NCBI GenBank assembly: GCA_000743035.1
Contig: CP008936.1
Coordinates: 1,140,001 to 1,172,000, forward strand
DNA from: Candidatus Paracaedimonas acanthamoebae
Lineage (GTDB): Bacteria; Pseudomonadota; Alphaproteobacteria; Caedimonadales; Caedimonadaceae
Length of the DNA stretch: 32,000 nt
Reading direction: 5' to 3'
Shown: positions 16,102 to 29,934 of the stretch, piece by piece
Position numbering within the stretch: position 1 is the stretch's first letter
Layout: each line of letters starts with the position of its first letter
Made by a program: the position numbers and the translations under genes
Notes under the pieces: model-generated
Databases searched by the model: none
What the model was told of the DNA's origin: nothing
Seen by the model: only the letters and a program-made list of their open reading frames with translations

Positions 16102-17208
16102 TTGAAACACACCTTAAAAGACCTTGTAATTTTGAAAGAAAATGAGGATCTTCTCAAAGTTTTAATTAAAACAATGCCAACAGCTGTTGCTATGCTTGAT
16201 GACCAACTACGATATATCATAACAAGTGATCGCTGGTTTAAGGAAACTAATTTATCCGAGAGCGACATAACAGGAAAATTGCATTACGAGGTCGTACCAG
16301 ACCTTCCTGAACGATGGAAAGAAATACACCAGCGTTGTTTAAAAGGCGAACATGTAAAATGTGATGAAGATGTTTTTATACGCTCAAATGGAAGCATCGA
16401 ATACCTAAGATGGGAGATTTTGCCTTGGTATAAATCCTCAAGCCTCATTGGTGGGATCATTATGTTTGTTGAACATATTACCGAACGTATAATCGTTGAG
16501 AAAAAGATGGAAAAAATGTTAACACAGCTAAAAAAATCAAATACTGAGCTGAAACAGTTTGCACATATGTGTGCACATGATCTGACTGAACCTCTCCGAA
16601 CAATTACAAATTATATTCATTTAGTGGAAGAGAAGGTTCAGAATAAAGACCTGCAAGATATTAACAACTATCTTAATATTATTCGAGACGGAGCTACTTA
16701 CATGCGTGCTCTTGTCCAAGGTATTTTGAATTACTCGCAAATGGGCCTCCATAAACCTAATAAATCATTATTTAATCTTGATAAAATAGTAAAAAATACT
16801 CAAATTACTCTTGCAAAAAGAATTAAAGAAAAAAATGCTGTTATTCATTGCCATGATTTACCAAAAATTTATGCAGATGTAACCCTGATCACTCAAGTCA
16901 TGCACAACCTTATCAGTAACGCGATAAAATTTAATTGTAGTGAAGCTCCAATTATCATGATCACCGCAGAAGAAAAAAAAGATACTTGGCTTATTAATAT
17001 TACCGATAATGGAATAGGTATTGATAAAAAATACCATGCAACCATCTTTAATATTTTTGTCAGGCTTCATAGCAAATCTCAATATCCAGGTTCTGGCATT
17101 GGATTGGCATCGTGCAAAAAAATTATAGAAGACCATGGTGGAGAGATCGGCCTTCAATCTAGCCCAAACAAAGGCTCTACTTTTTGGTTTACCTTACCAA
17201 ATAAATAG
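16102..17208 (+). CDS. cytoplasmic PAS-domain sensor histidine kinase
   Basis: PAS region (LIKTMPTAVAMLDDQLRYIITSDRW...), H-box FAHMCAHDLTEPLRTITNY, N-box MHNLISNAIKF, G1 ITDNGIGI, F-box IFNIFVRLH and G2 GSGIGLASCKKIIEDHGGEI. No TM segments are seen. TTG start; the exact start is uncertain. Confidence 0.85.
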   Translation: MKHTLKDLVILKENEDLLKVLIKTMPTAVAMLDDQLRYIITSDRWFKETNLSESDITGKLHYEVVPDLPERWKEIHQRCLKGEHVKCDEDVFIRSNGSIEYLRWEILPWYKSSSLIGGIIMFVEHITERIIVEKKMEKMLTQLKKSNTELKQFAHMCAHDLTEPLRTITNYIHLVEEKVQNKDLQDINNYLNIIRDGATYMRALVQGILNYSQMGLHKPNKSLFNLDKIVKNTQITLAKRIKEKNAVIHCHDLPKIYADVTLITQVMHNLISNAIKFNCSEAPIIMITAEEKKDTWLINITDNGIGIDKKYHATIFNIFVRLHSKSQYPGSGIGLASCKKIIEDHGGEIGLQSSPNKGSTFWFTLPNK

Positions 17209-17272: not shown

Positions 17273-20200
17273 TTAAAGATGACTTATTTTAATCCGGCGA
17301 ACCCAAGCCTGCCAATCTCGCGCGCCTAAATCTGATTCAAAAGATAATAACTCTTTCACAGTTTTCTCACAGATTGATATATCAGGCACAATGAGTTCTT
17401 GGTTCATGGATAAGACCAAACACTGAGTTTTACAGGCTTGTTGAAGATGGTAGGTATAAAATAGCGCCTCTTGGATTGTCTTCCCACAAGTTAAAGAACC
17501 ATGATTCCTCATGAGCAAGACATATTTATCTTGTAAATCATCGACAAGGGATTCTCCTTGGCTTCCATTAAGGGCTAACGAATTATAAGAATGATAGGTA
17601 ATCTGATTATAAAAATGCAAAGCCCATTGACTCAGCGGTTGCAAACCTTTTTTAAGCGCCGAAACAGCCACAATCTCAGGGGTATGGATATGAAAAATGG
17701 CATTAATATCAGGGCGCTTCTGATAGATAGCCCCATGAATAACATAGCCTGTTTTATTATATTGATACTCCGATCCTTCTAAAATTTCCCCATCAAAAGC
17801 AACCCGCAACAAACACTCAGGCGTTACTTCTTCAAAACAAAGACCAAACGGATAGATATAATATGCGCAACCATCTTCTGCACGTAAAGATAAGTGCGTA
17901 TAGGTATGGTCATCAAGCCCTAAGTAAGCAAGGATTTGATAGGCATAGGCGAGATCTCTTCTCAAAGTCATCTTCTGGTTCCTGCATTCTTCTCTACTTG
18001 CTTTGTAAGTATCATAAGCAATAAATAATTCTAAGGGAAAAAGGTACTCAAGTTGACCATCACGATAGAGTTCTGCGATTTCATTCGCACCTAACCCACC
18101 AAGTGTTCCTGCTACAATACTTCTGATCATCCCTTGAAGAGTGTCTTGAAGTCGAGCACCTCCAATTGTTGCATTTAATGCCCCTGAGACTCCCGCACGA
18201 ACCATATTGCTCTTCAAATGCTGCTGCCATCCTTCAGGTTGCTTGGGAAGATTAAACGTCCCACTTAGCTCATGCATCAACCCCGCACTGGCCATATTGA
18301 TGATGAACGATCTGGCAAACTCAGATGAGGTAAGAGCCTTCAGGTTCCCTGTCTGCACAAGAGACGAGGCCGCTTGGCTACTTATCGTCGAGAATCCTGC
18401 ATTGGTGACGGCAACACCCAACGAGGATAAACTCACTGCAGGCACCACGGTTGCTGTGCCGGTCGCTGCCACGGCTGGCACCATCCCAAACGCGGACTCC
18501 GCAAGCGCATTCATAAGCCCTGATGCCCACCCATAGGTTAAAAGACCTGCAGCGAGTCCCACCACCATCGCAAGGGCTTGATTCCCGCCTGGGCGATGGC
18601 CCACACAGAGATCATACAGCTCTTGACGAGGCGCCGGACGCGTAAGGTCAACATCTGGCGCTTCAGTGATCAACTCAGTTCGCACCTCAGGCCGATGACC
18701 TTGAATCTTCCCTTGCGCCTTCAACACAACCTTGCCAGGCATCGTGAGGGTGTTCGGGACCTGAATCTCTTGAGAGCCACCCCGCTCCCAAATCGCTCGC
18801 TTCTTATTATAAAGCTCTGTCTTTTGCGGCTGCATCACGCTGGCGTCTTCAACCGTCAGATCTCTCTTCGCCTCAATCAGAGCAGACCCCTTCTTCCCCT
18901 CCATCTCAACCCCCACCAGATGAATATCCTGATGAGAGAAAAGATGGATTGGCCCTTGCGAGAGGACCTTTGGCCGCACAACCCTATAACTTGGCCGCAT
19001 CCCTTCCTTGCGCATCCCGCGGCAACTCGTCGAATCCTCCATTAATGACCTCGTGATCAAAGGCGAAAGGTGCATCTTCTTTTGAGTCTCTGGCGACCAG
19101 CCTCCTTCCCCAACGATAAGGGTGACGCCTTGAGCAAACAAGGACTGAAGCTCTCTGACTTTCTCATACCCGGCAAAGATCTCTTGGATCTCTTTGGGAT
19201 CCTTCAAAACCCTGCCATATTTATAAAGGCCACTCACCTCCTCTGGAAGCGCTTCTGATAGGGTCACTGTCTGCTTCTTGATCTCCTTCTTCCTCTTCAC
19301 ACGACCCCAAACATTCTTCCGCTTCCACATCTTCTTCATCTCATGCGTCTCGGACCATGTGTGGTGCTGACGTTGAATCGCAAGATGCCCAACATCCTCA
19401 ATCAGCAGCTCTGTGTGAAGGGTTCCTGTCGTCAATAAGTCTTCAATATCTAACCACAAGATTTTTGACTTCATCTCACCAAGATCAATGTTGGCTTGCT
19501 CGGCATGAAGATCGAACTGATCCACCCATAAATCCCCCCCAGGTTGGGAAACATACTGAAACTTTTTAGGAAGCTTTGGCGCCTCTTTCTCCTTTTTCTT
19601 AAAAAACCCTATCAGCTTTGTCGAGGCTCCTTCTCTTATGAAAGGCTTGGGCGTTTGCTCGACACAATCCACCTGCTTTGTCACCTTCAAGGTCCCTGTC
19701 GTCAGAGTTCCTTTCTTGGCGATCAGGCGAGAGCGATCAAAATGCGTATGAGACCCTTTCTTCCCCAACAGATAGGCTTCCTTCTCTATGATTTGCGCGA
19801 GGTGATCACGGACATGAGGATCATGATAGGAAGGCGGCGTAATCAAATAAGAGCGCAAGGCTTGCCGATCATACTGCCCTTCAGGAAGGCTAAAAAGGAT
19901 CGGCTCATTCAGCTTCAGCGCCATCTCTTTCGGCAATGAGGATTGAAGGCCTTGGAATAAATGGGGGCCCCGCTCAATCAACGCTTGAGAAGGCGTATTC
20001 GCGGGCAAACCCAAAAGCTTCGGATTGTCAAGAAAAGGCTTAAGGTAAGGGAACAGATCCGCTCCATTTTGAATCACCTTGCGATGCAAAGAAAGGTAAT
20101 CTGGACATTCAGGTGTCAATGGCACATAGCCGATATTCTGCTGAAACGCCTCAATAAGAGCCTGTCCCTCAGCAAAGAAAGGAAGAACAAACGGAAGCTT

Positions 20201-23200
20201 CTCTGATCCTTTCGGCCCTAAAATCAGCCGTTTGCTTTTTTGAAGCTCTTCTTCCAAAGGATACTTAATGGGAACAAGCGGGATAAATAATGTCGACCCC
20301 TTCCCTGTCGAATCCAGCTTCACAAGGCTGGAAGACGCTCCCAAAGATAAAGGCATGACGGGCTGATAAGGAATGGCACGGCCAGACCGGCCAACCGTCT
20401 GCACCGTGAGCCCTTTTTCAAAAATAATGAGGAGCTTCGAGCCAATCATCTTTCCTTGAACTAAGGCTTCCTTTGCTCCAGTAAAGGCAATTCCCTGGCT
20501 TCCTTCCAGCTGAGGAAGGATTGAATAAAACCCATCCCTTTCAATCTCAATGGGCGAATCCCACGTAAAATAATCATCAATCGTTTTCTTTTTAGGACGT
20601 TTCGGGAACGCCTTATTCCACCGTTCATTTTGGAGAAGTTTTAGAATGTTTTTATTTTCCCATCCTCGGCGGGTTAAATCGGAGCATCTGGCCGGATGTA
20701 AAATCTCATAAGGCGTCTTATCAAGATGATAAATAATTCCTGACTTAAAGTGAAACACCGCCTCTATTTGATCAATAAATTCTTTCCCAACAATAGCTCC
20801 AGAGGCTAAAATAGATCCTCCATAGTTCCTTCCTTTCTGAATATCAAACCTTATATGGCCATTCACCTTGAAGCTCGGCGCTCTTCCTTGAGCAAGGCAA
20901 TAATCAATCCAATAAGGCGGAGAAAGACCTTCACCCACGCGCTGAACAGCTGGAATGAAATGATTAAAGAGAGCCCCCCTTATCGTCGCATTGCCCTTCC
21001 AAACCGCCACTGACGTCCCTGAAAAAGAACTCTCTTGATGGGCCACAACTTCCAAATGCTCATCCGCAACCACAATATTCCCGCCATGGCCATGGAAGGT
21101 TTGAGCCTCAAGCCTCATCCCCTCATTCGAGACAAATTGACTTTTATTGGGAATATACACGTCATAAGGCGCCTTAATGGCTGGCCCAATCGCATTCCCG
21201 CGGGATGTCTCATAGAATACCTTCCTTTTAATCCATCGCCCTAACGTAATGTCTTGCTCTGCCTTGATGTGAAAGAAATGATTGGAGAACACAATCCCTC
21301 GAACAAGGTCAAACGTTTTAGCATCGGTCGCTTCAAAAGAACCCCCACTCTGAATCTTGATCAAGGGAAGAGAAGGCTCTCCAACCCAAATAGCATGCCC
21401 TGAGGCTTTCAGCTGAAGCCCTTTGCCTGATGACAGATTTGCGTGTAGTTTTAAAGTTTGCGCGGTCTTGTGAGGGAGAACTTCAATCTTTATCCCCCCT
21501 TCCACCTCAAGAGGACGCCATAGCTTTCCTCCTTCCCGAAAAATCAGCTTTAAAAGGCCTAAGGTTCTTAAAGAATGGAGACCATAGTTGGCCACTCTCT
21601 CAGGGCACTTGGCCTTAATCTCAATTCCTTCTCGCCCTTCAACAAACGCCCCTCGAAAGTCATGGTAATGTCCCTCGATCTTAAGAACTTTTGCCGCTCT
21701 CACCTCTCCTGTATCTCGTTGCGAGAAGTTCCCCTTTAAAACAATGTTCCCTTGATCGCTGATCATCTTCCCATAGTTATACAGATTCCACAGATCCTCA
21801 TTATAAGAAGACGTTAAAATCTCAATTCCTTTTCTGGCTTCAAGGGTGGTCTTGTTCGTGAGCCCAGGACTTTCAACCCGTAGCTGTCCAAGCAATTTAA
21901 GAGGAATCTCTAATTTTTGGCAAGGCGGCAAGATAAGATGAAGCAACCCTGGGGTTTGCAGACCCTCTGTTTGATAAGAAAGGCCTTTTGCTGTCTTCAA
22001 TAAGACTTTCTGAGTGCCCTCAACAACATCCTTTAAGATAATATCCCCCTTCGTCGAGGTGATCTGAACGTGATCTGCCTGGATCTTTTTTTCAGCCACG
22101 ACGGAAGGCGCTTGGATAAAAAGTTCACCCCTCGTCTGTAGGGGGGGCGTTAACGTGAAGGCCTCTTGAAGAATAAACGAAAGCTTCGGCGTGTTCCCTT
22201 TGATCTCTTTCACCTTAAAAGGTTGTGTCACTGTAATAGAAGGACCTTCCAGGGTTAACTGTGTCTCTGGACTCTCAAGGGGCTGATTCAGTTGCTTATT
22301 GCCATCAAAGGCAAAGGTTACTAAAGGACATCCCTTAAAAACTGTGGGCAAATATTTAAGACCCCACTTATGCAACGTATGTACCTTCAAATGCTCTTTT
22401 ACCGTCATGGGGCCCTGCAAATAATTTAAATGCCCTTTAAAAGAAGCCTGCTGAGAGGTATAAATCTCCCCTTCTGGATAATGGGTGGTATTGCCCTCAA
22501 CATAAAGAGGACCTTCTTCACTCATCAGCTTTCCACGATTCACCACCCCAAACCCTTCTTCAACAAGAGGCGTCAAAAAGGTAAAGCCTTGTTTTGCGCG
22601 TAAGGAGGAAAAATTATAGGCTTGAGGGCCTTTAAAAAGAAAATGACCTAAAAGAGAAAGAGGAGATTTAAAATAAAGCCGAGATGGAGTGCTGATAATC
22701 TCTAAAGTCCCCTCTGTCTGCAGGCCTGAGGTTTGTGGCGTGATATTCGGGCCGCCGTCTTTGTAAGAAAGCCCCCCTCCGACTCGCAACGTGAGACCTT
22801 CAATACCCACAGCCCTTTCCTTCAACGTGATCTGACCCGGACTCTCAACTTGCAAGGTGTTATGGGCAAATACCTCTTTCTCTGAGCTCACCGATTGGCC
22901 CACAATCGAGATATCTTGCTTGCCGATAACGGTTCCTTTCAGCACAACAGGCCCTGAGGCTGATATTTTAAGGTCCCCCTCAACTTGAAGATCTTGCGTT
23001 GAGGTAAAAGCTGAAGAAGCAATCTCAACCTTTCCCCAAGCCTTGAGGGAAGTGGATAAAGCAGTCCCTGTAAACTTTAAGAAAGGTGTGTGAGCTTCCG
23101 TGATGGTCGCCTCTAAATGCTGTCCGATCTCTAACGACGGTCCTTCTAAGGAAAGAGGTCCTAACGTTTTAATGTCTTGTGTGAAGGTTGCAGGCTCTTG

Positions 23201-24580
23201 AAACACAAGCTTTAAGGCTTTCTCGGTCTTCAACTTTTGAGGATCATAGGTAAATCCTTGCTTGCTCTTGATCGTAAAAGCTGATTGAGGGTAAAGGTCC
23301 CCTTGCACCACATGCGTCTCACCTTCCATCTCAACGCCTTGATAGGCCCAAAGAAGTCCTTTTGTATGCTGAACATTCCCTTGAAGAATCACTTTCCCCT
23401 CTTCCGAGTGTAAAACGGCTTCATTGAGAATGGAGGGTGCTTTAAAGTGAACTGTTCCTTTGCCACTCATCCCCCCAAGGTTCTTTATAAGAGCAGCTTC
23501 GGCGGTTAAAGAACCTTTAAGGATAAGAGGATCTGAGAAAGTTAAAGGAGAGGTTGTTGAGATCAGCTCAAGCTTCTTAAATTCCGTCAAGCCCTTAAAA
23601 TCACATCCTTCAAAGTTTATGGCTTCAAGGTGGAGATGATCCCCCTGCAAATGAGGAAAAGTGCTGAGACCTTGGTGGGTCTTCACGTGAATCTTGTGAG
23701 CCTCAACCAAAGAAGAGGGATGCGAGATCATCTCCTTCCCTTCATAGGCAAACTGGCCTTCTTTCATCCTGAGCTGAGACTGGGAAGTCCGATGATCAAG
23801 GACCCGGCCATTTCTAAAGGTAAGACGCTTAACCCCTTTAATCTGATGATCATTCATCAGGTTATTCCCATGTAAATCAGCCGTCCCATCTTCTTTAAAT
23901 TTTAAAGTCCCTTGGTTTAAAAACGTCCCTTCATGAAGGTGGAGCTCTTGCACATTGAGGGTGCTGCTCCCCTCAATCTTAAAATCTCCATGTACAGCTA
24001 AAGTCTCAACATCAATCCCCTGTAACTCTTTCTGCAAATCTAAAGAAGCCATCGCCCGACTCACAACCCTTGGCGCACACGTCACAAGGCCTTTCACTTG
24101 AATCCCATCCTCAATAATAATGGCGCCCTCATTCTCGAGCCCAACTGTGGAGTTCTTCTGTCCTAAACCATCAAGCAATAATTTAATGTAAAGAGTGTTG
24201 TTGTCTTCCCCTTTAGGGCTTTTCAGGACCTGAATAGACTTCAAAAGAGCAGGATGGACAAACTGATAAACCTTCCCTTTCCAGCGATAAAAAGTTTGAA
24301 GCTGATCTTGGCTTTCTCGAAAGACCCAATCACAGTCCTTAAACTCTTCTCGTAATTTAGCACTCTCTTTTGAAAGGCTTATCGTAGAATGGGGAAAAGG
24401 TTTAGAAACATACGACCCTCCTTGCAAGCGAGCTTCTTGGAGGTCTGCTTGAATCGCTCCCAACCCCTCATGCGCCCACACAACACCTAAAAATATCTGC
24501 TGATAAATCAAAATATAGGTCAGAAAGATGCGACCCACATCACGCAATAATCCCAAAATCTTTGGCACACAAAATCTCAT
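17273..24580 (-). CDS. giant (2,435 aa) FhaB/CdiA-like beta-helical protein with a DUF637-like pretoxin region and a C-terminal class II aldolase/adducin-head domain
   Basis: Uninterrupted 7.3-kb ORF with GGGAGG 4 nt before the ATG and a hydrophobic N-terminus ([19 protein letters not shown]). The body is repetitive and G/L/K/T-rich. An FhaB-like block [21 protein letters not shown]...[13 protein letters not shown] lies at about nt 20,000-20,190. The Ala/Gly/Ser-rich DUF637-like segment spans nt 18,041-18,577 and ends in [17 protein letters not shown]. The last 232 aa (nt 17,276-17,971) match class II aldolase/adducin ([57 protein letters not shown]). Confidence 0.85.
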
Positions 24581-24940: not shown

Positions 24941-25735
24941 TTTCCCGCACGATGAGGACTCTTCTCTGGCACCTATTCACACCTTCTGGTTGCTTGAGAT
25001 CCCCGGCACAAGGCCGGGGATGACCGTATGGGTGATAGCCCTGAAGCTCATCAGTTTTCATTCCTTTGCTGTCAACCATTTTTTCTTCCTTTCTTTATTC
25101 ATTTTCATCTCTGCTCAGTCCTCACTAATGAGATCCAAGTTCTTCCATCTTCGTCATCCTAGGCCTTGTGCCTAGGATCTCAAGCGACCGTAAGATCTCA
25201 CCTACCACTACTCGATGTCTTCGGCCTTTCCTGGATCCCCGCCTCCGCGGGGATGACAATAGGAGTGTGCAGGAATGATACAAAAAAGTGTTTGTTGCCA
25301 TCCGTGCCTTTACTTTGCCTCTCCTCTTCCAGATCGTGCCTGTGACACACAAGTACGCCTCTCGGGTACCTTTACCACCTTCAGGCTGCCTGAGATCCCC
25401 GCCTCCACGGGGATGACCGTGTGGTCGATATGTTTCAAGTTCATCAGTTTTAATTCTTTTGTTTTCAATCATTTTTTCTTCCTTCCTTTAAGTTGTTTTA
25501 ATTTTCACTCAGACCTTACCTGTGAGTCCCAAGTTCCTTTGTATTTGTCATCCTCGGCCTTGTCCCGAGAATCTCAAGTAACCGATAGGTCTCACTCATC
25601 ACCTTTCGATGCCTTTCAGTCTTTCTGGATCCCCGCCTCCACGGGGATGACCCTTATAAATTTCAAACGTTGTCATTCTTGAACTTGTCCCGAGAATCTC
25701 AAGCGACCTGAAGATCTCTCCTGTCACCAACTTTT
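24941..25735. repeat. hairpin-repeat array 1 (modules X1-Y1-X2-Y2-partial Y3)
   Basis: Two ~400-bp units, each with three parts. The first is an ~85-nt X module ending in CTGAGATCC[stem-loop-stem]GGATGAC. The second is a ~128-nt T/C-rich spacer. The third is a Y module: GTCATCC[stem-loop-stem]GGATCTCAAG, then ~55 nt, then CTGGATCCCCGCCTCC(A/G)CGGGGATGAC. Hairpins lie at 25002-25020, 25161-25179, 25237-25253, 25398-25413, 25553-25569 and 25631-25646. Confidence 0.9.
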
Positions 25736-27014: not shown

Positions 27015-27386
27015 TTACCCCCGCACCAACTGCTGGAATTCGAGCACAGCTTCTCGGGTAATGGCATCGTCTTTAAGGGCTATGTCCTGGCGAACAAATC
27101 GGAACAATCCTAAGCTATTAGGTTCAAGAAGCACCTTATAACCCTCCAATTTCTCCTTCAAAAACGCCACAATTCGATCCATCTCCTGGGGACCTTTATA
27201 AGTGCTGACAGCCTTAAGTGTAAACGTGATCGTCCCTTTGTCTACCTCAGGAAAAGACCATGCTTGGCCAGTTTCTTCATAAATCACATAAGGTGGCTTA
27301 GCATCGGGAGGCACAAAGCCATATAAAGAGACTTCCCCTTTCAAAAGAGCTTCAATGGCGGGAAAAATGGAAACTATGGTCATCAT
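27015..27386 (-). CDS. DUF3168-type phage/GTA tail-completion protein (RcGTA g8-like)
   Basis: Its size (123 aa) and its position directly after the head-tail adaptor, with an ATGA overlap, fit the family. The sequence style LYGFVPPDAKPPYVIYEE...TFTLKAVS resembles the DUF3168 proteins that follow the adaptor gene in alphaproteobacterial GTA clusters. Confidence 0.6.
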   Translation of the reverse strand: MMTIVSIFPAIEALLKGEVSLYGFVPPDAKPPYVIYEETGQAWSFPEVDKGTITFTLKAVSTYKGPQEMDRIVAFLKEKLEGYKVLLEPNSLGLFRFVRQDIALKDDAITREAVLEFQQLVRG

Positions 27387-27750
27387 CCGCCTCTTTCATG
27401 ATCTTTTAGAGCCACCCCACAAAACTGTTGCCATCCCCTATTGGGAAGATATTCTGCATCTTCAAGAATCGCATAAGACGTGCGCGTTCCTTTAAGACGC
27501 ATCCCAGCCTTAATGGAGATATCTCGGCGGGCTGAAAACACATAGATAGGCTGTCCAAGATATCTTGCGCCTAAACATGGCCACATGTCACATGACCCAC
27601 ACGCCGTCGCACAGGATGCAACATCTCGCGCTTTACCCATAGGCGTCCAACATCTTGCCAGTCTTCTTCAACCCCACCTTCATGATCCGGCAAAAGATGG
27701 CTTTGTTGCACAAGAATGAGCTCTTGCAAGCTGTTTAAGGATGACTTCAT
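27383..27750 (-). pseudogene. phage head-tail adaptor / head-closure protein (RcGTA g7-like), frame-broken
   Basis: N-terminal part, by hand translation from ATG 27750: MKSSLNSLQELILVQQSHLLPDHEGGVEEDWQDVGRLWVKRE..., which stops at 27571-27573. The C-terminal part is in another frame (track ORF 27383..27640: ...IYVFSARRDISIKAGMRLKGTRTSYAILEDAEYLPNRGWQQF...). Together they resemble one ~120-aa adaptor protein. Confidence 0.6.
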
Positions 27751-27773
27751 GATTGATCTACCTTTTCAGATGA

Positions 27774-28394
27774 TTATCCTAATCGTTGAACGCGATAAGG
27801 TAGAATCAATTGAATAGCAGCTGGACTTAAAGAGGGGGGCACGCCTCGATTATCATTGCTGGACACGCGATTCTCAAAAAGCTCTGCCACCATCATCAAG
27901 ATTCCATGCTGAATTGACTCAGGAATATCATTATGATTCAGGCCATAGCCTGCTTTAAAATCAATTTGAATCATGCTGTTTTTGCTGGCTTCGAGGCTTA
28001 ATGTCTTCCCGAAATAAAGCTTTGCAACACGTCCTGCGGTATCAAGACGATAATCTTTCAGCTCACATTGCCGATAGGAATCAATAAGCTTTGGACAACT
28101 CAAGAGTTCGACAAAGGGTGAGCGTGGCAGTTCGATGCCTTGCTCATGCTGACGATGATTACCTGTTAGAAAACCATTATCACTTTTAGCAATACAGAAG
28201 CCTGCATTCACAGTAAAACGCCAAGTTTGATAAATGAGCGAGCGGGCTGTGAATGCTTCAACGGCCATTCGTGCTGTTTTAATAAGATGCTTTAAAAGCT
28301 CATCTTCTTCAGAACTTTCAATCCTTAAAAAGGCTTTCACATCCGCCAAAGTAACGGGCTCTTTTCCTGGATGTTGTAATAATGTTAGACTCAT
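27774..28394 (-). CDS. phage gp6-like head-tail connector protein (RcGTA g6-like)
   Basis: The N-terminus (TLADVKAFLRIESSEEDELLKHLIKTARMAVEAFTARSLIYQTW) is the typical head-tail connector motif. The length of 206 aa and the position directly after the capsid gene also fit. Confidence 0.75.
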   Translation of the reverse strand: MSLTLLQHPGKEPVTLADVKAFLRIESSEEDELLKHLIKTARMAVEAFTARSLIYQTWRFTVNAGFCIAKSDNGFLTGNHRQHEQGIELPRSPFVELLSCPKLIDSYRQCELKDYRLDTAGRVAKLYFGKTLSLEASKNSMIQIDFKAGYGLNHNDIPESIQHGILMMVAELFENRVSSNDNRGVPPSLSPAAIQLILPYRVQRLG

Positions 28395-28520
28395 TTTTTT
28401 TATTTTCCTTTAAAGGTTATCTTAACGATAAGACTATTAAAAAATTATTACGTGCTTGAGGAATGATCCCTAAAACTTCATTTTTTGTAAAAGTTTAAAG
28501 GAGTTCCCTCTCATCCTTTT

Positions 28521-29639
28521 TTAAGCCGCGAATGAAATTACTTTAATCGCTTCAAAATTGATCACATCACCCCCCACTCGCTTTGTGGTATAAAATTCCA
28601 CATACGGTTTTGAGCTAAACGGATCCCGCATAATGCGCATGCCCGCGCGATCAACAATTTGATAGCCTTCTTTAAAGTTCCCAAAAACGATGGATTTAGA
28701 TGCCGTTCCAGCCACTAAAGCCGGCATGTCTTCAGCCAAGACAACGGGATAACCAAGCAACGTTGGACTGATCTCATCAGCTAAACCTGGCTGCCATAGA
28801 TATTGGTGATTTTGATCTTTGAGTTTGCGGACCATGGCATGAGCGGAGCGTGACATCAACCACACAGCCCCTTTTTGGTACTCAGGCTTTAAAGCATTCA
28901 TGGTCTCAATTAAGATATCCGCCGCATTTTCATCTCAGAAAGCCCCATCCTTCCCTGTCTTAATATGTTCAAGCTTACCCCACTCCCATTGAGCGCGATC
29001 TTTCGTTTCATAGCTTAAAAAGCCTTTAGGCTTATTATCACCATCCCCATGGATAAAGGCATGATTTTCCACCTGAGCGAGTTTTGTGGCAATCCGACCC
29101 GCAAGCCATGACTCAACATCAACCCGCGCATCATCCAACAGTTTCTGGGTTGCGCGCGGCTTTGCATAGAGTTCATGCACGGGAATGCGCAACTTCATCA
29201 AATTTGGCGTCTTTGTTTCTTTCCGCTCTGCTGTCTCAGTCACCCACCCCACTTCAGCGCCTTCTTTATCCAACAAGAGCTCAATCGCACTTGCTGAAAT
29301 TGTCATGACGGATGAGATGGCACGAATCGGCGATAAATCCTGTAAATTTCGTCCAATGCGATCTGCAACCACTTGAGGAATAAGATAGCCCCCATCACCC
29401 TCAACCCCAGCGGTTAAGCTTTTTGTCTCCGCGCATTCCAGCTGTTTTGATTCTCCTTGCCGAACATAGTTGAGTAATGCTTTCTTTTGTTCCGTTTCTC
29501 CGTAAGAAAGTGAACCACTCGTCTCAAACGCCGGTCGTTTGGAAGCCACCTCAAGATGACGGAATCGTTCTTCTTGGCTCGCTTTAAATTCGCCAAAGGC
29601 GTGTGTTAATGTATCAATTGCTTCATTGACTGTATTCAT
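28521..29639 (-). pseudogene. HK97-family major capsid protein (RcGTA g5-like) interrupted by a single in-frame TGA
   Basis: Track ORFs 28935..29639 and 28521..28901 are in the same frame, separated only by TGA at 28937-28935 (...GKDGAF*DENAADILIETMNALKPEYQKGAVWLMSRS...). Capsid motifs present: DGGYLIPQ, SPIRAIS, GWVTETAERKETKTP, PVHELYAKPRATQKLLDDARVDVESWL, ENHAFIHGDGDNKPKGFL, LWQPGL, GYPVVLAEDMP and FYTTKRVGGDVINFEAIK. Confidence 0.8.
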
Positions 29640-29934
29640 TTTTAGTCTTCCTGTTTTTTCGTTTTTTTAATTTTAGTGTGCTGTTAGGCACGTTTTTTGT
29701 TTTATGGTTTCATTAAAACCTTTTGTTTTTTTGTTTTTTGGTATGAGGTCAACCGTTAAGCCTTTTCCTCAAGTGTTATGCTCTACGTTCTTTATGACAT
29801 TTCTGCCTCCCTTTGTTTTTTATCGTTAGTCATTGTTCATCTACTTCGCTGTATCTTCTTTTCTCATTTCTGCCCCGTCCCTCTCCCGCGCGGTTAGGGA
29901 TCTTTTGACACCTTTCGATACTCACCTTTTCCAC

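Follow-up and report, generated by a model that had tools for sequence, protein, structure and literature searches.

A truncated polymorphic-toxin gene reading in frame into a conserved class II aldolase gene in Candidatus Paracaedimonas acanthamoebae: a probable deletion scar

Introduction

What is to be made of an uninterrupted reading frame that begins as a giant protein of a polymorphic-toxin family and ends as a complete, metabolic-type enzyme? The question is raised by a 32,000-nucleotide (nt) stretch of the chromosome of Candidatus Paracaedimonas (formerly Caedibacter) acanthamoebae (contig CP008936.1, positions 1,140,001 to 1,172,000; hereafter the window), where an open reading frame (ORF) of 2435 codons occupies positions 17273-24580 of the minus strand, with no stop between a DUF637 part and a class II aldolase/adducin-family part. 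Polymorphic toxins with DUF637 and VENN-type pretoxin regions are well established (Zhang et al. 2012, PMC3482391), and such toxin systems are also on record for the group's amoeba endosymbionts (PMC3482391; PMC8163844). A preliminary description of the locus, made from the letters alone, had placed the aldolase in the toxin slot of the giant protein as a cargo acquired by gene fusion. The comparisons presented here suggest that the composite frame is most probably a deletion scar, in which a truncated toxin gene reads through the control region of a conserved neighbour and into that neighbour, and not a toxin scaffold that has gained a new cargo.

The composite reading frame

Searches of the 2435-amino acid (aa) translation against Pfam recovered DUF637 at aa 2060-2169, with a match to 3-131 of the 168 profile positions, and Aldolase_II at aa 2209-2387 (E 1e-43), covering positions 2-183 of 183; 23 linker codons lie between the DUF637 motif that ends in EYL and the ATG of the aldolase. 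ORF and profile searches therefore agree with the preliminary description that a single frame comprises a DUF637 part, a 23-aa linker and a full aldolase. That description had also taken the DUF637 region to end at the EYL motif, which does not hold, as the profile is only partly covered here and is matched from position 2 to 166 in an intact paralogue considered below. The frame upstream of the aldolase ATG is open for 2221 codons in the window, compared with 4-26 codons in its relatives, and the 2435-aa product is absent from a collection of 15 billion proteins.

The two parts of the frame differ in composition. The GC content at third codon positions (GC3) is 0.34 in the aldolase and 0.30 in the linker, within the range of the conserved backbone genes that adjoin the aldolase (0.19-0.36), whereas it reaches 0.52 in the tail of the giant gene and 0.47 in the remainder. 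Linker and aldolase thus match the backbone in composition, and the giant gene does not. The rise in GC upstream of the join, noted earlier from hand counts, is borne out by GC3 and by 100-nt windows, which stand at 0.57-0.59 between 18373 and 18672.

The aldolase is a conserved stand-alone gene

The last 232 residues of the frame, from the ATG at 17971-17969, are an exact match to AIL13158.1 (IM40_06005), encoded on the 1.72-Mb chromosome of the organism. The Aldolase_II profile search that had been proposed as a check on this part returned a significant, full-length match to the 232-aa protein alone (E 1.7e-44, profile positions 2-183 of 183), and the NCBIfam model NF005186/PRK06661 matched it with 392 bits over positions 4-233 of 235, the curated equivalog cut-off being 339 bits. 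By sequence, the closest solved structures are 3OCR, a class II aldolase/adducin protein (5e-43), and adducin heads (1e-31 for adducin-1), and in the sequence alignment with 3OCR the HIH and RNHG motifs of the protein, which hold its candidate metal ligands, pair with HTH and RNHG. The suggestion of an adducin-like role at the host cytoskeleton finds its support in this fold-family similarity and goes no further. Source records label members of the family either 'hypothetical protein' or 'putative aldolase'.

Orthologues were found in 80 genomes, a set to which the window's own genome does not belong, at 53-89% identity, among Holosporales, Rickettsiaceae, Wolbachia and Midichloriaceae as well as Coxiellaceae, Legionellaceae and Francisellaceae metagenome-assembled genomes (MAGs). 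For a 'hypothetical' protein this identity is unusually high, and the distribution is biased towards intracellular bacteria. The open frame around the aldolase measures 217-363 aa in 79 of the 80 loci and 543 aa in the remaining one (L015), and in none of the 80 is it continuous with a giant ORF. The orthologous ORFs themselves are 215-283 aa long in most loci and share a conserved start, with aligned beginnings such as MTLRRDL, MSLLRKDL and MNLRRDL. Among the 120 best protein homologues, length is 229-372 aa, and the precomputed Pfam domains comprise nothing but Aldolase_II. The survey for unfused orthologues that the preliminary description had called for thus found a stand-alone aldolase both in the 80 genomes and among the 120 closest proteins.

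The closest comparisons are with the sister species Caedibacter sp. 38-128 (loci L001 and L086) and with three further relatives (L081, L083 and L002). Identity to the window copy is 89% over the full length in L086, 86% in L081, 84% in L083 and 79% in L002, and the window sequence shows no departure from these stand-alone orthologues. The gene also heads a conserved backbone, as it is followed by a PAS histidine kinase, BON, 8xMP, Host_attach, a response regulator, trkA, ntrX, ntrY and dus in an order common to L001/L086, L081, L083 and L002. As judged from sequence and gene order, the aldolase can be regarded as an ancestral, vertically conserved stand-alone gene.

Fusions of a different kind do occur in this orthologue group. 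In some Rickettsiales MAGs the same aldolase carries an N-terminal GNAT domain and/or a C-terminal DUF4440 (SnoaL-like) domain, in proteins of 538 aa (L015, 1819-3432), 360 aa (L025, 8147-9226) and 372 aa (P0028); the last represents a cluster of nine sequences, while the L015 and L025 forms were each seen once.

The linker is the leader of the aldolase gene

The origin of the 23 linker codons was followed in an alignment of five genomes (the window, L086, L081, L083 and L002). The aligned leader, TTTT(T/A)CC..TAGAATTATTTAT..CTT(A/G)TG.TA.TTAC followed by a purine-rich stretch, spans exactly the 69 nt that are read as the linker in the window. It includes a conserved block, TAGAATTATTTATTGCTTATGATACTTAC, at 18005-18033, and an AGGA at 17980-17983, 8 nt before the aldolase ATG. 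The block is present in L083, L081 and L002, none of which has a giant gene upstream of the aldolase: in L083 the aldolase is preceded by genes for capsid, connector and tail-completion proteins, a 446-aa gene, a 187-aa gene and then 175 nt, in L081 by a methyltransferase gene and small ORFs, and in L002 by two genes on the opposite strand. Because the block is kept in relatives without the giant gene, it is best viewed as non-coding DNA that belongs to the aldolase.

The openness of this leader calls for little explanation. The relatives show 4-26 open codons ahead of the ATG in the aldolase frame, so an open run of 23 codons is unremarkable, and the frame that corresponds to the linker contains stops in L086 and L081. 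Counting from the E of EYL, a stop closes one of the two remaining leader frames of the window after 5 codons and the other after 11.

Its conservation suggests that the leader block may act as a promoter or operator. A scan with a simple sigma-70 consensus called no promoter within the leader, where the number of sites did not exceed that of shuffled sequence, and RNAalifold gave no conserved RNA structure for it. A riboswitch or other leader RNA was also considered and rejected; a search of the window against Rfam matched only a tRNA.

The toxin gene is broken inside DUF637

The closest relative of the giant gene, which begins at its own ATG and comprises 2180 codons up to the leader (Table 1), is the plasmid-borne P0001 (IM40_11330) of this organism. 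The two proteins are 95% identical overall, and the identity is unevenly spread, being 100% over aa 3-1859, about 88% up to aa 2006 and 40-70% up to aa 2180. Beyond the shared motif ...GANEIA(E/Q)LY.DGQ.EYL they are unrelated. The homology to P0001 ends at EYL, and the homology to the aldolase leaders of the relatives begins at TTTT(T/A)CC.

What is missing on the toxin side can be read from the intact relatives. Past its own FEYL, P0001 continues with THKLAHAILGG..., which completes DUF637 (profile positions 2-166 of 168), then with ...AENAIRNN..., which by eye resembles VENN, and finally with an Ntox28 domain at aa 2304-2401. Another relative, P0128, matches DUF637 from 1 to 168 of 168 and carries a CDI_toxin_EC869-like C-terminal domain; P0132 and P0137 also have a complete DUF637, and in full-length relatives of the P0128, P0132 and P0137 type 200-430 residues lie beyond it. 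The more distant P0002, at 32% identity to the giant gene over 63% of the query, has a partial DUF637 match and about 385 residues after its VENN-like motif. The window gene lacks the last quarter of DUF637, the VENN-like pretoxin region, the toxin and an immunity gene; the next gene downstream of the giant ORF is the convergent histidine kinase gene. By these alignments the join falls inside DUF637, upstream of any pretoxin boundary. The aldolase cannot be said to occupy the toxin slot, since the slot itself appears to have been deleted.

The identical tract deserves mention in its own right. A run of 1857 consecutive identical residues (about 5.6 kb) is shared between chromosome and plasmid, with diverged sequence flanking it on both sides, which indicates a probable recent duplication or gene conversion between the two replicons.

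Table 1. Coordinates of the features discussed, as positions in the 32,000-nt window
Feature	Position	Strand	Basis or remark
Convergent PAS histidine-kinase gene	16102..17208	+	Pfam; synteny with L001, L002, L081, L083, L086
Complete stand-alone class II aldolase/adducin-family gene, 232 aa plus stop	17273..17971	-	Exact match to AIL13158.1 / IM40_06005
Native upstream leader of the aldolase, 69 nt, read as the 23-aa 'linker'	17972..18040	-	Five-genome alignment; GC 0.33
Putative deletion join, ...GAG TAC CTT (EYL) / TTT CCC TTA GAA...	18038..18042	-	T5 homopolymer
3'-truncated giant polymorphic-toxin-family gene, 2180 codons	18041..24580	-	Own ATG; GGGAGG Shine-Dalgarno
Diverged end of the giant gene (aa 1860-2180); GC 0.535, the regional maximum	18041..19003	-	Identity to P0001; L086 remnant
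Partial DUF637 (profile 3-131 of 168)	18074..18403	-	Pfam; compare fuller matches in P0001, P0128, P0132, P0137
Tract encoding aa 3-1859, protein-identical to the plasmid paralogue	19004..24574	-	Mismatch list; identity per 50 aa

A separate truncation in the sister species

Caedibacter sp. 38-128 (L001/L086) likewise carries, directly upstream of the aldolase and on the same strand, a remnant of this toxin family, with 52% identity to the tail of the window gene over 149 aa. This remnant reaches further than the window copy, through LHKGGH...ACNAIDHNFLTQEDEF...ASLS, the equivalent of aa 1672-1923 in the 2308-residue P0002, and is cut after ACNAIDHNF...ASLS, a point that matches P0002 aa 1923. 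Its frame, which differs from that of the window copy, continues into the leader as far as the TGA of CTTATGA and closes there, with 35 nt left to the aldolase. The end of the toxin has thus been lost in both organisms, with breakpoints that differ on both sides of the join. Truncation of two lineages at different points is what would be expected of decay, and not of selection for a fusion.

All contigs of the sister species (L086-L091) break about 0.1-1 kb upstream of the aldolase, and in L086 the DUF637 remnant is preceded, within positions 1-120, by in-frame stops and unrelated sequence. This suggests that a repeat or mobile element lies at the contig breaks and that no more than about 290 codons of the giant gene are left there.

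A probable history of the locus

In the history that most probably accounts for these observations, the ancestral state would have been an aldolase gene with a conserved leader of about 70 nt and its ribosome-binding site. A giant DUF637 toxin gene would then have arrived just upstream, in the ancestor of this species and its sister, within the variable region between a gene transfer agent (GTA)/phage-like gene cluster and the aldolase. A later deletion would have removed the end of DUF637, the VENN-like pretoxin region, the toxin domain, any immunity gene and the distal part of the intergenic spacer, so that codon 2180 of the giant gene came to abut position -69 in the leader of the aldolase (about 18040/18041). 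Read in phase with the aldolase ATG, this leader has no stop, and since the join happens to keep that phase, the computed ORF continues into the aldolase; the chance of an in-frame join within the leader may be put at roughly 1 in 3. The aldolase is likely still expressed by itself from the retained leader and the AGGA-ATG, while the remnant of the giant gene presumably no longer delivers a toxin and any 2435-aa read-through product would arise as a side effect of gene decay, without having been selected for.

The homologies, the position of the breakpoint, the conservation of the leader and the stand-alone state in the relatives are well established at the level of sequence comparison, and they lend themselves to a divided view of the earlier proposal. 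The idea that a foreign gene of higher GC lost its C-terminus and was joined to a resident gene is upheld by the comparison with P0001, the leader alignment and GC3. The further idea of a functional cargo in the toxin slot is not, given a break inside DUF637, the missing pretoxin region, a linker that is the native leader of the aldolase, and an aldolase that stands alone elsewhere.

Several observations nevertheless weigh against regarding the locus as mere debris. The frame is open and the giant gene has a strong GGGAGG, so that, if the gene is transcribed and translated, a fusion polypeptide should form and may be useful. The sigma-70 scan gave no promoter in the leader, and for independent transcription of the aldolase the argument is drawn from conservation. 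The remnant runs for 2180 codons without an internal stop, as could be the case if it were still under selection or had merely been converted recently from the plasmid copy.

Alternative explanations

It might be asked whether the join is real at the level of single nucleotides, as an indel introduced in sequencing or assembly could make a single frame out of two ORFs. Adding or removing one T in the run of five T at the join would cause the remnant to stop a few codons further on and leave the aldolase as a separate gene, given that the other two leader frames soon close; the L086 remnant ends in exactly one of these frames, at the TGA of CTTATGA, and a capsid gene nearby has a single in-frame stop that may likewise be an error, or else mark a real pseudogene. 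Such an error is nonetheless unlikely. Reads from 454, Illumina and PacBio went into the genome (CP008936-CP008940; PMC4198247), Illumina reads in an assembly usually correct homopolymer errors, and a T5 is a short run. An indel would, moreover, alter only the possibility of a fusion polypeptide and not the origin of the locus.

A selected, functional fusion, in which the giant protein serves as an export or surface scaffold that presents an aldolase/adducin-like domain to the amoeba or to neighbouring bacteria, is harder still to credit and must be judged very improbable. It would draw on the unbroken frame, the strong ribosome-binding site of the giant gene, the relationship of the aldolase family to adducin heads (1e-31), the striking conservation of that family among intracellular bacteria and the polymorphic toxin systems of the group's amoeba endosymbionts (PMC3482391; PMC8163844). 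The fusion is, however, seen in no other genome among the 80 loci and 120 best homologues, DUF637 has lost its last quarter and the pretoxin/VENN region is gone, and the linker is non-coding in the relatives, with stops in the matching frame in L086 and L081. Neither an immunity gene nor a TpsB partner occurs in the window, the database record keeps the aldolase separate (AIL13158.1), and the protein is unchanged with respect to stand-alone orthologues (89% to the sister species over its full length). A more specific version, with a marginally smaller chance of being correct, is that the read-through protein is made and that its Sec-type N-terminus and scaffold bring the aldolase/adducin head, by export or display, to the surface of the bacterium or into the cytoplasm of the amoeba; were it true, a toxin gene in decay would have captured an endosymbiont's housekeeping enzyme and made it an effector, and the locus would show the moment at which deletion gives birth to an effector. 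Least credible of all is a canonical C-terminal swap in the manner of CdiA-CT, by recombination with an orphan cassette that would make the aldolase the new variable module. Recombination does operate in this gene family, as the tail (aa 1860-2180) is a mosaic relative to the plasmid copy, but swaps act at or after a VENN-type boundary and involve a toxin/immunity pair, whereas the break here lies inside DUF637 and the supposed module belongs to the syntenic backbone and was at the site before the giant gene. The cassette model was rejected, contradicted as it is by the synteny and the leader alignment.

The giant gene family and the surrounding region

The giant protein belongs to a Holosporales-type DUF637 toxin family (P0001, P0002, P0128, P0132, P0137). 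Its first 1200 aa have only 17 relatives, P0128, P0132 and P0137 among them, in a phmmer search (E up to 0.001) of 1.84 billion representative sequences, and on this evidence the scaffold family would be both rare and restricted to a lineage. Pfam at E up to 0.01 returned only DUF637 and Aldolase_II, and thus neither a TPS domain nor filamentous-haemagglutinin repeats; aa 1-2180 had no sequence match in the PDB, and the giant gene had none in the plasmid collection. No TpsB (FhaC/CdiB) partner gene lies within the window. The N-terminus of the protein looks like a signal or anchor sequence.

Apart from the giant ORF, the only ORFs of more than 400 aa in the window are those of NtrY, NtrX and TrkA. 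The upstream neighbours of the giant gene are small ORFs, repeats and phage/GTA genes. A conserved GTA/phage-like head-tail cluster (27015-29642, minus strand, compared with L002 3330-5955 and L083 1-2634) marks the far side of this region, and between it and the aldolase the gene content differs in every close relative examined; this segment appears to be a local hotspot of insertion and deletion. The 187-aa ORFs of the window and of L083 are unrelated despite their equal length. Within the cluster, the GTA/phage-type major capsid gene (28521-29642, minus strand) has a single in-frame stop (...KDGAF*DENAAD...), and the orthologue in L002 is intact, with 373 aa and 92% identity; the window copy is either a pseudogene or the product of a sequencing error. 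Between the 187-aa ORF and the giant gene, palindromic elements of about 40 nt are clustered at 24980-25730, in the forms GTCATCCCCG(T/C)GGAGGCGGGGATC and GTCATCC..GGCCTTGT.CC..GGATCTCAAG, and a unit of about 394 nt is duplicated in the same region. These elements look like a REP/RPE-like repeat family.

Significance and comparison with known systems

As biology, one more decayed polymorphic-toxin gene beside an ordinary conserved gene in a reductive endosymbiont genome matters little. Both the DUF637/VENN toxins and the aldolase family are already catalogued, and what is particular here is only the in-frame remnant left by a probable deletion. The locus is of more use as a caution, in that a "DUF637 + Aldolase_II" architecture derived from an open frame can be an accident of deletion, which a comparison with the empty site resolves quickly. 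Some secondary points are worth attention, namely the lineage-restricted scaffold without a recognisable secretion domain, the 5.6-kb tract shared by chromosome and plasmid, and the conserved aldolase related to adducins.

Among toxin systems, the nearest likeness is to the CdiA/FhaB-type toxins of type Vb secretion (T5bSS), which have DUF637, a PT-VENN region, a variable toxin and an immunity gene; the family of the giant gene shares with them DUF637, a VENN-like motif (by eye) and variable toxins. It differs from CdiA/TpsA proteins in that no TPS domain or haemagglutinin repeats were detected and no TpsB gene is present in the window.

The aldolase finds its counterparts in the NF005186/PRK06661 (PF00596) proteins of intracellular bacteria, with which it shares length and start; H-x-H and N-H-G histidine motifs, putatively metal-binding, are visible in its sequence. 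The protein itself is no different from these, and only in this genome is the frame open upstream into another gene. The Rickettsiales MAG proteins in which members of the same orthologue group are part of larger products (GNAT-Aldolase_II-DUF4440 and Aldolase_II-DUF4440) offer a partial parallel, although their fusion partners are small enzyme-like domains, unlike the toxin/secretion scaffold in the window. The locus as a whole can be set beside the deletion-made chimeric ORFs and truncated or displaced toxin genes of reductive endosymbionts, which it resembles in the loss of the 3' end, the long 5' remnant, the independent truncation in the sister species and the decayed neighbours such as the capsid gene. 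It departs from other decayed toxin genes in one respect, as the remnant has stayed in frame with the next gene, which gives rise to a striking but probably meaningless architecture.

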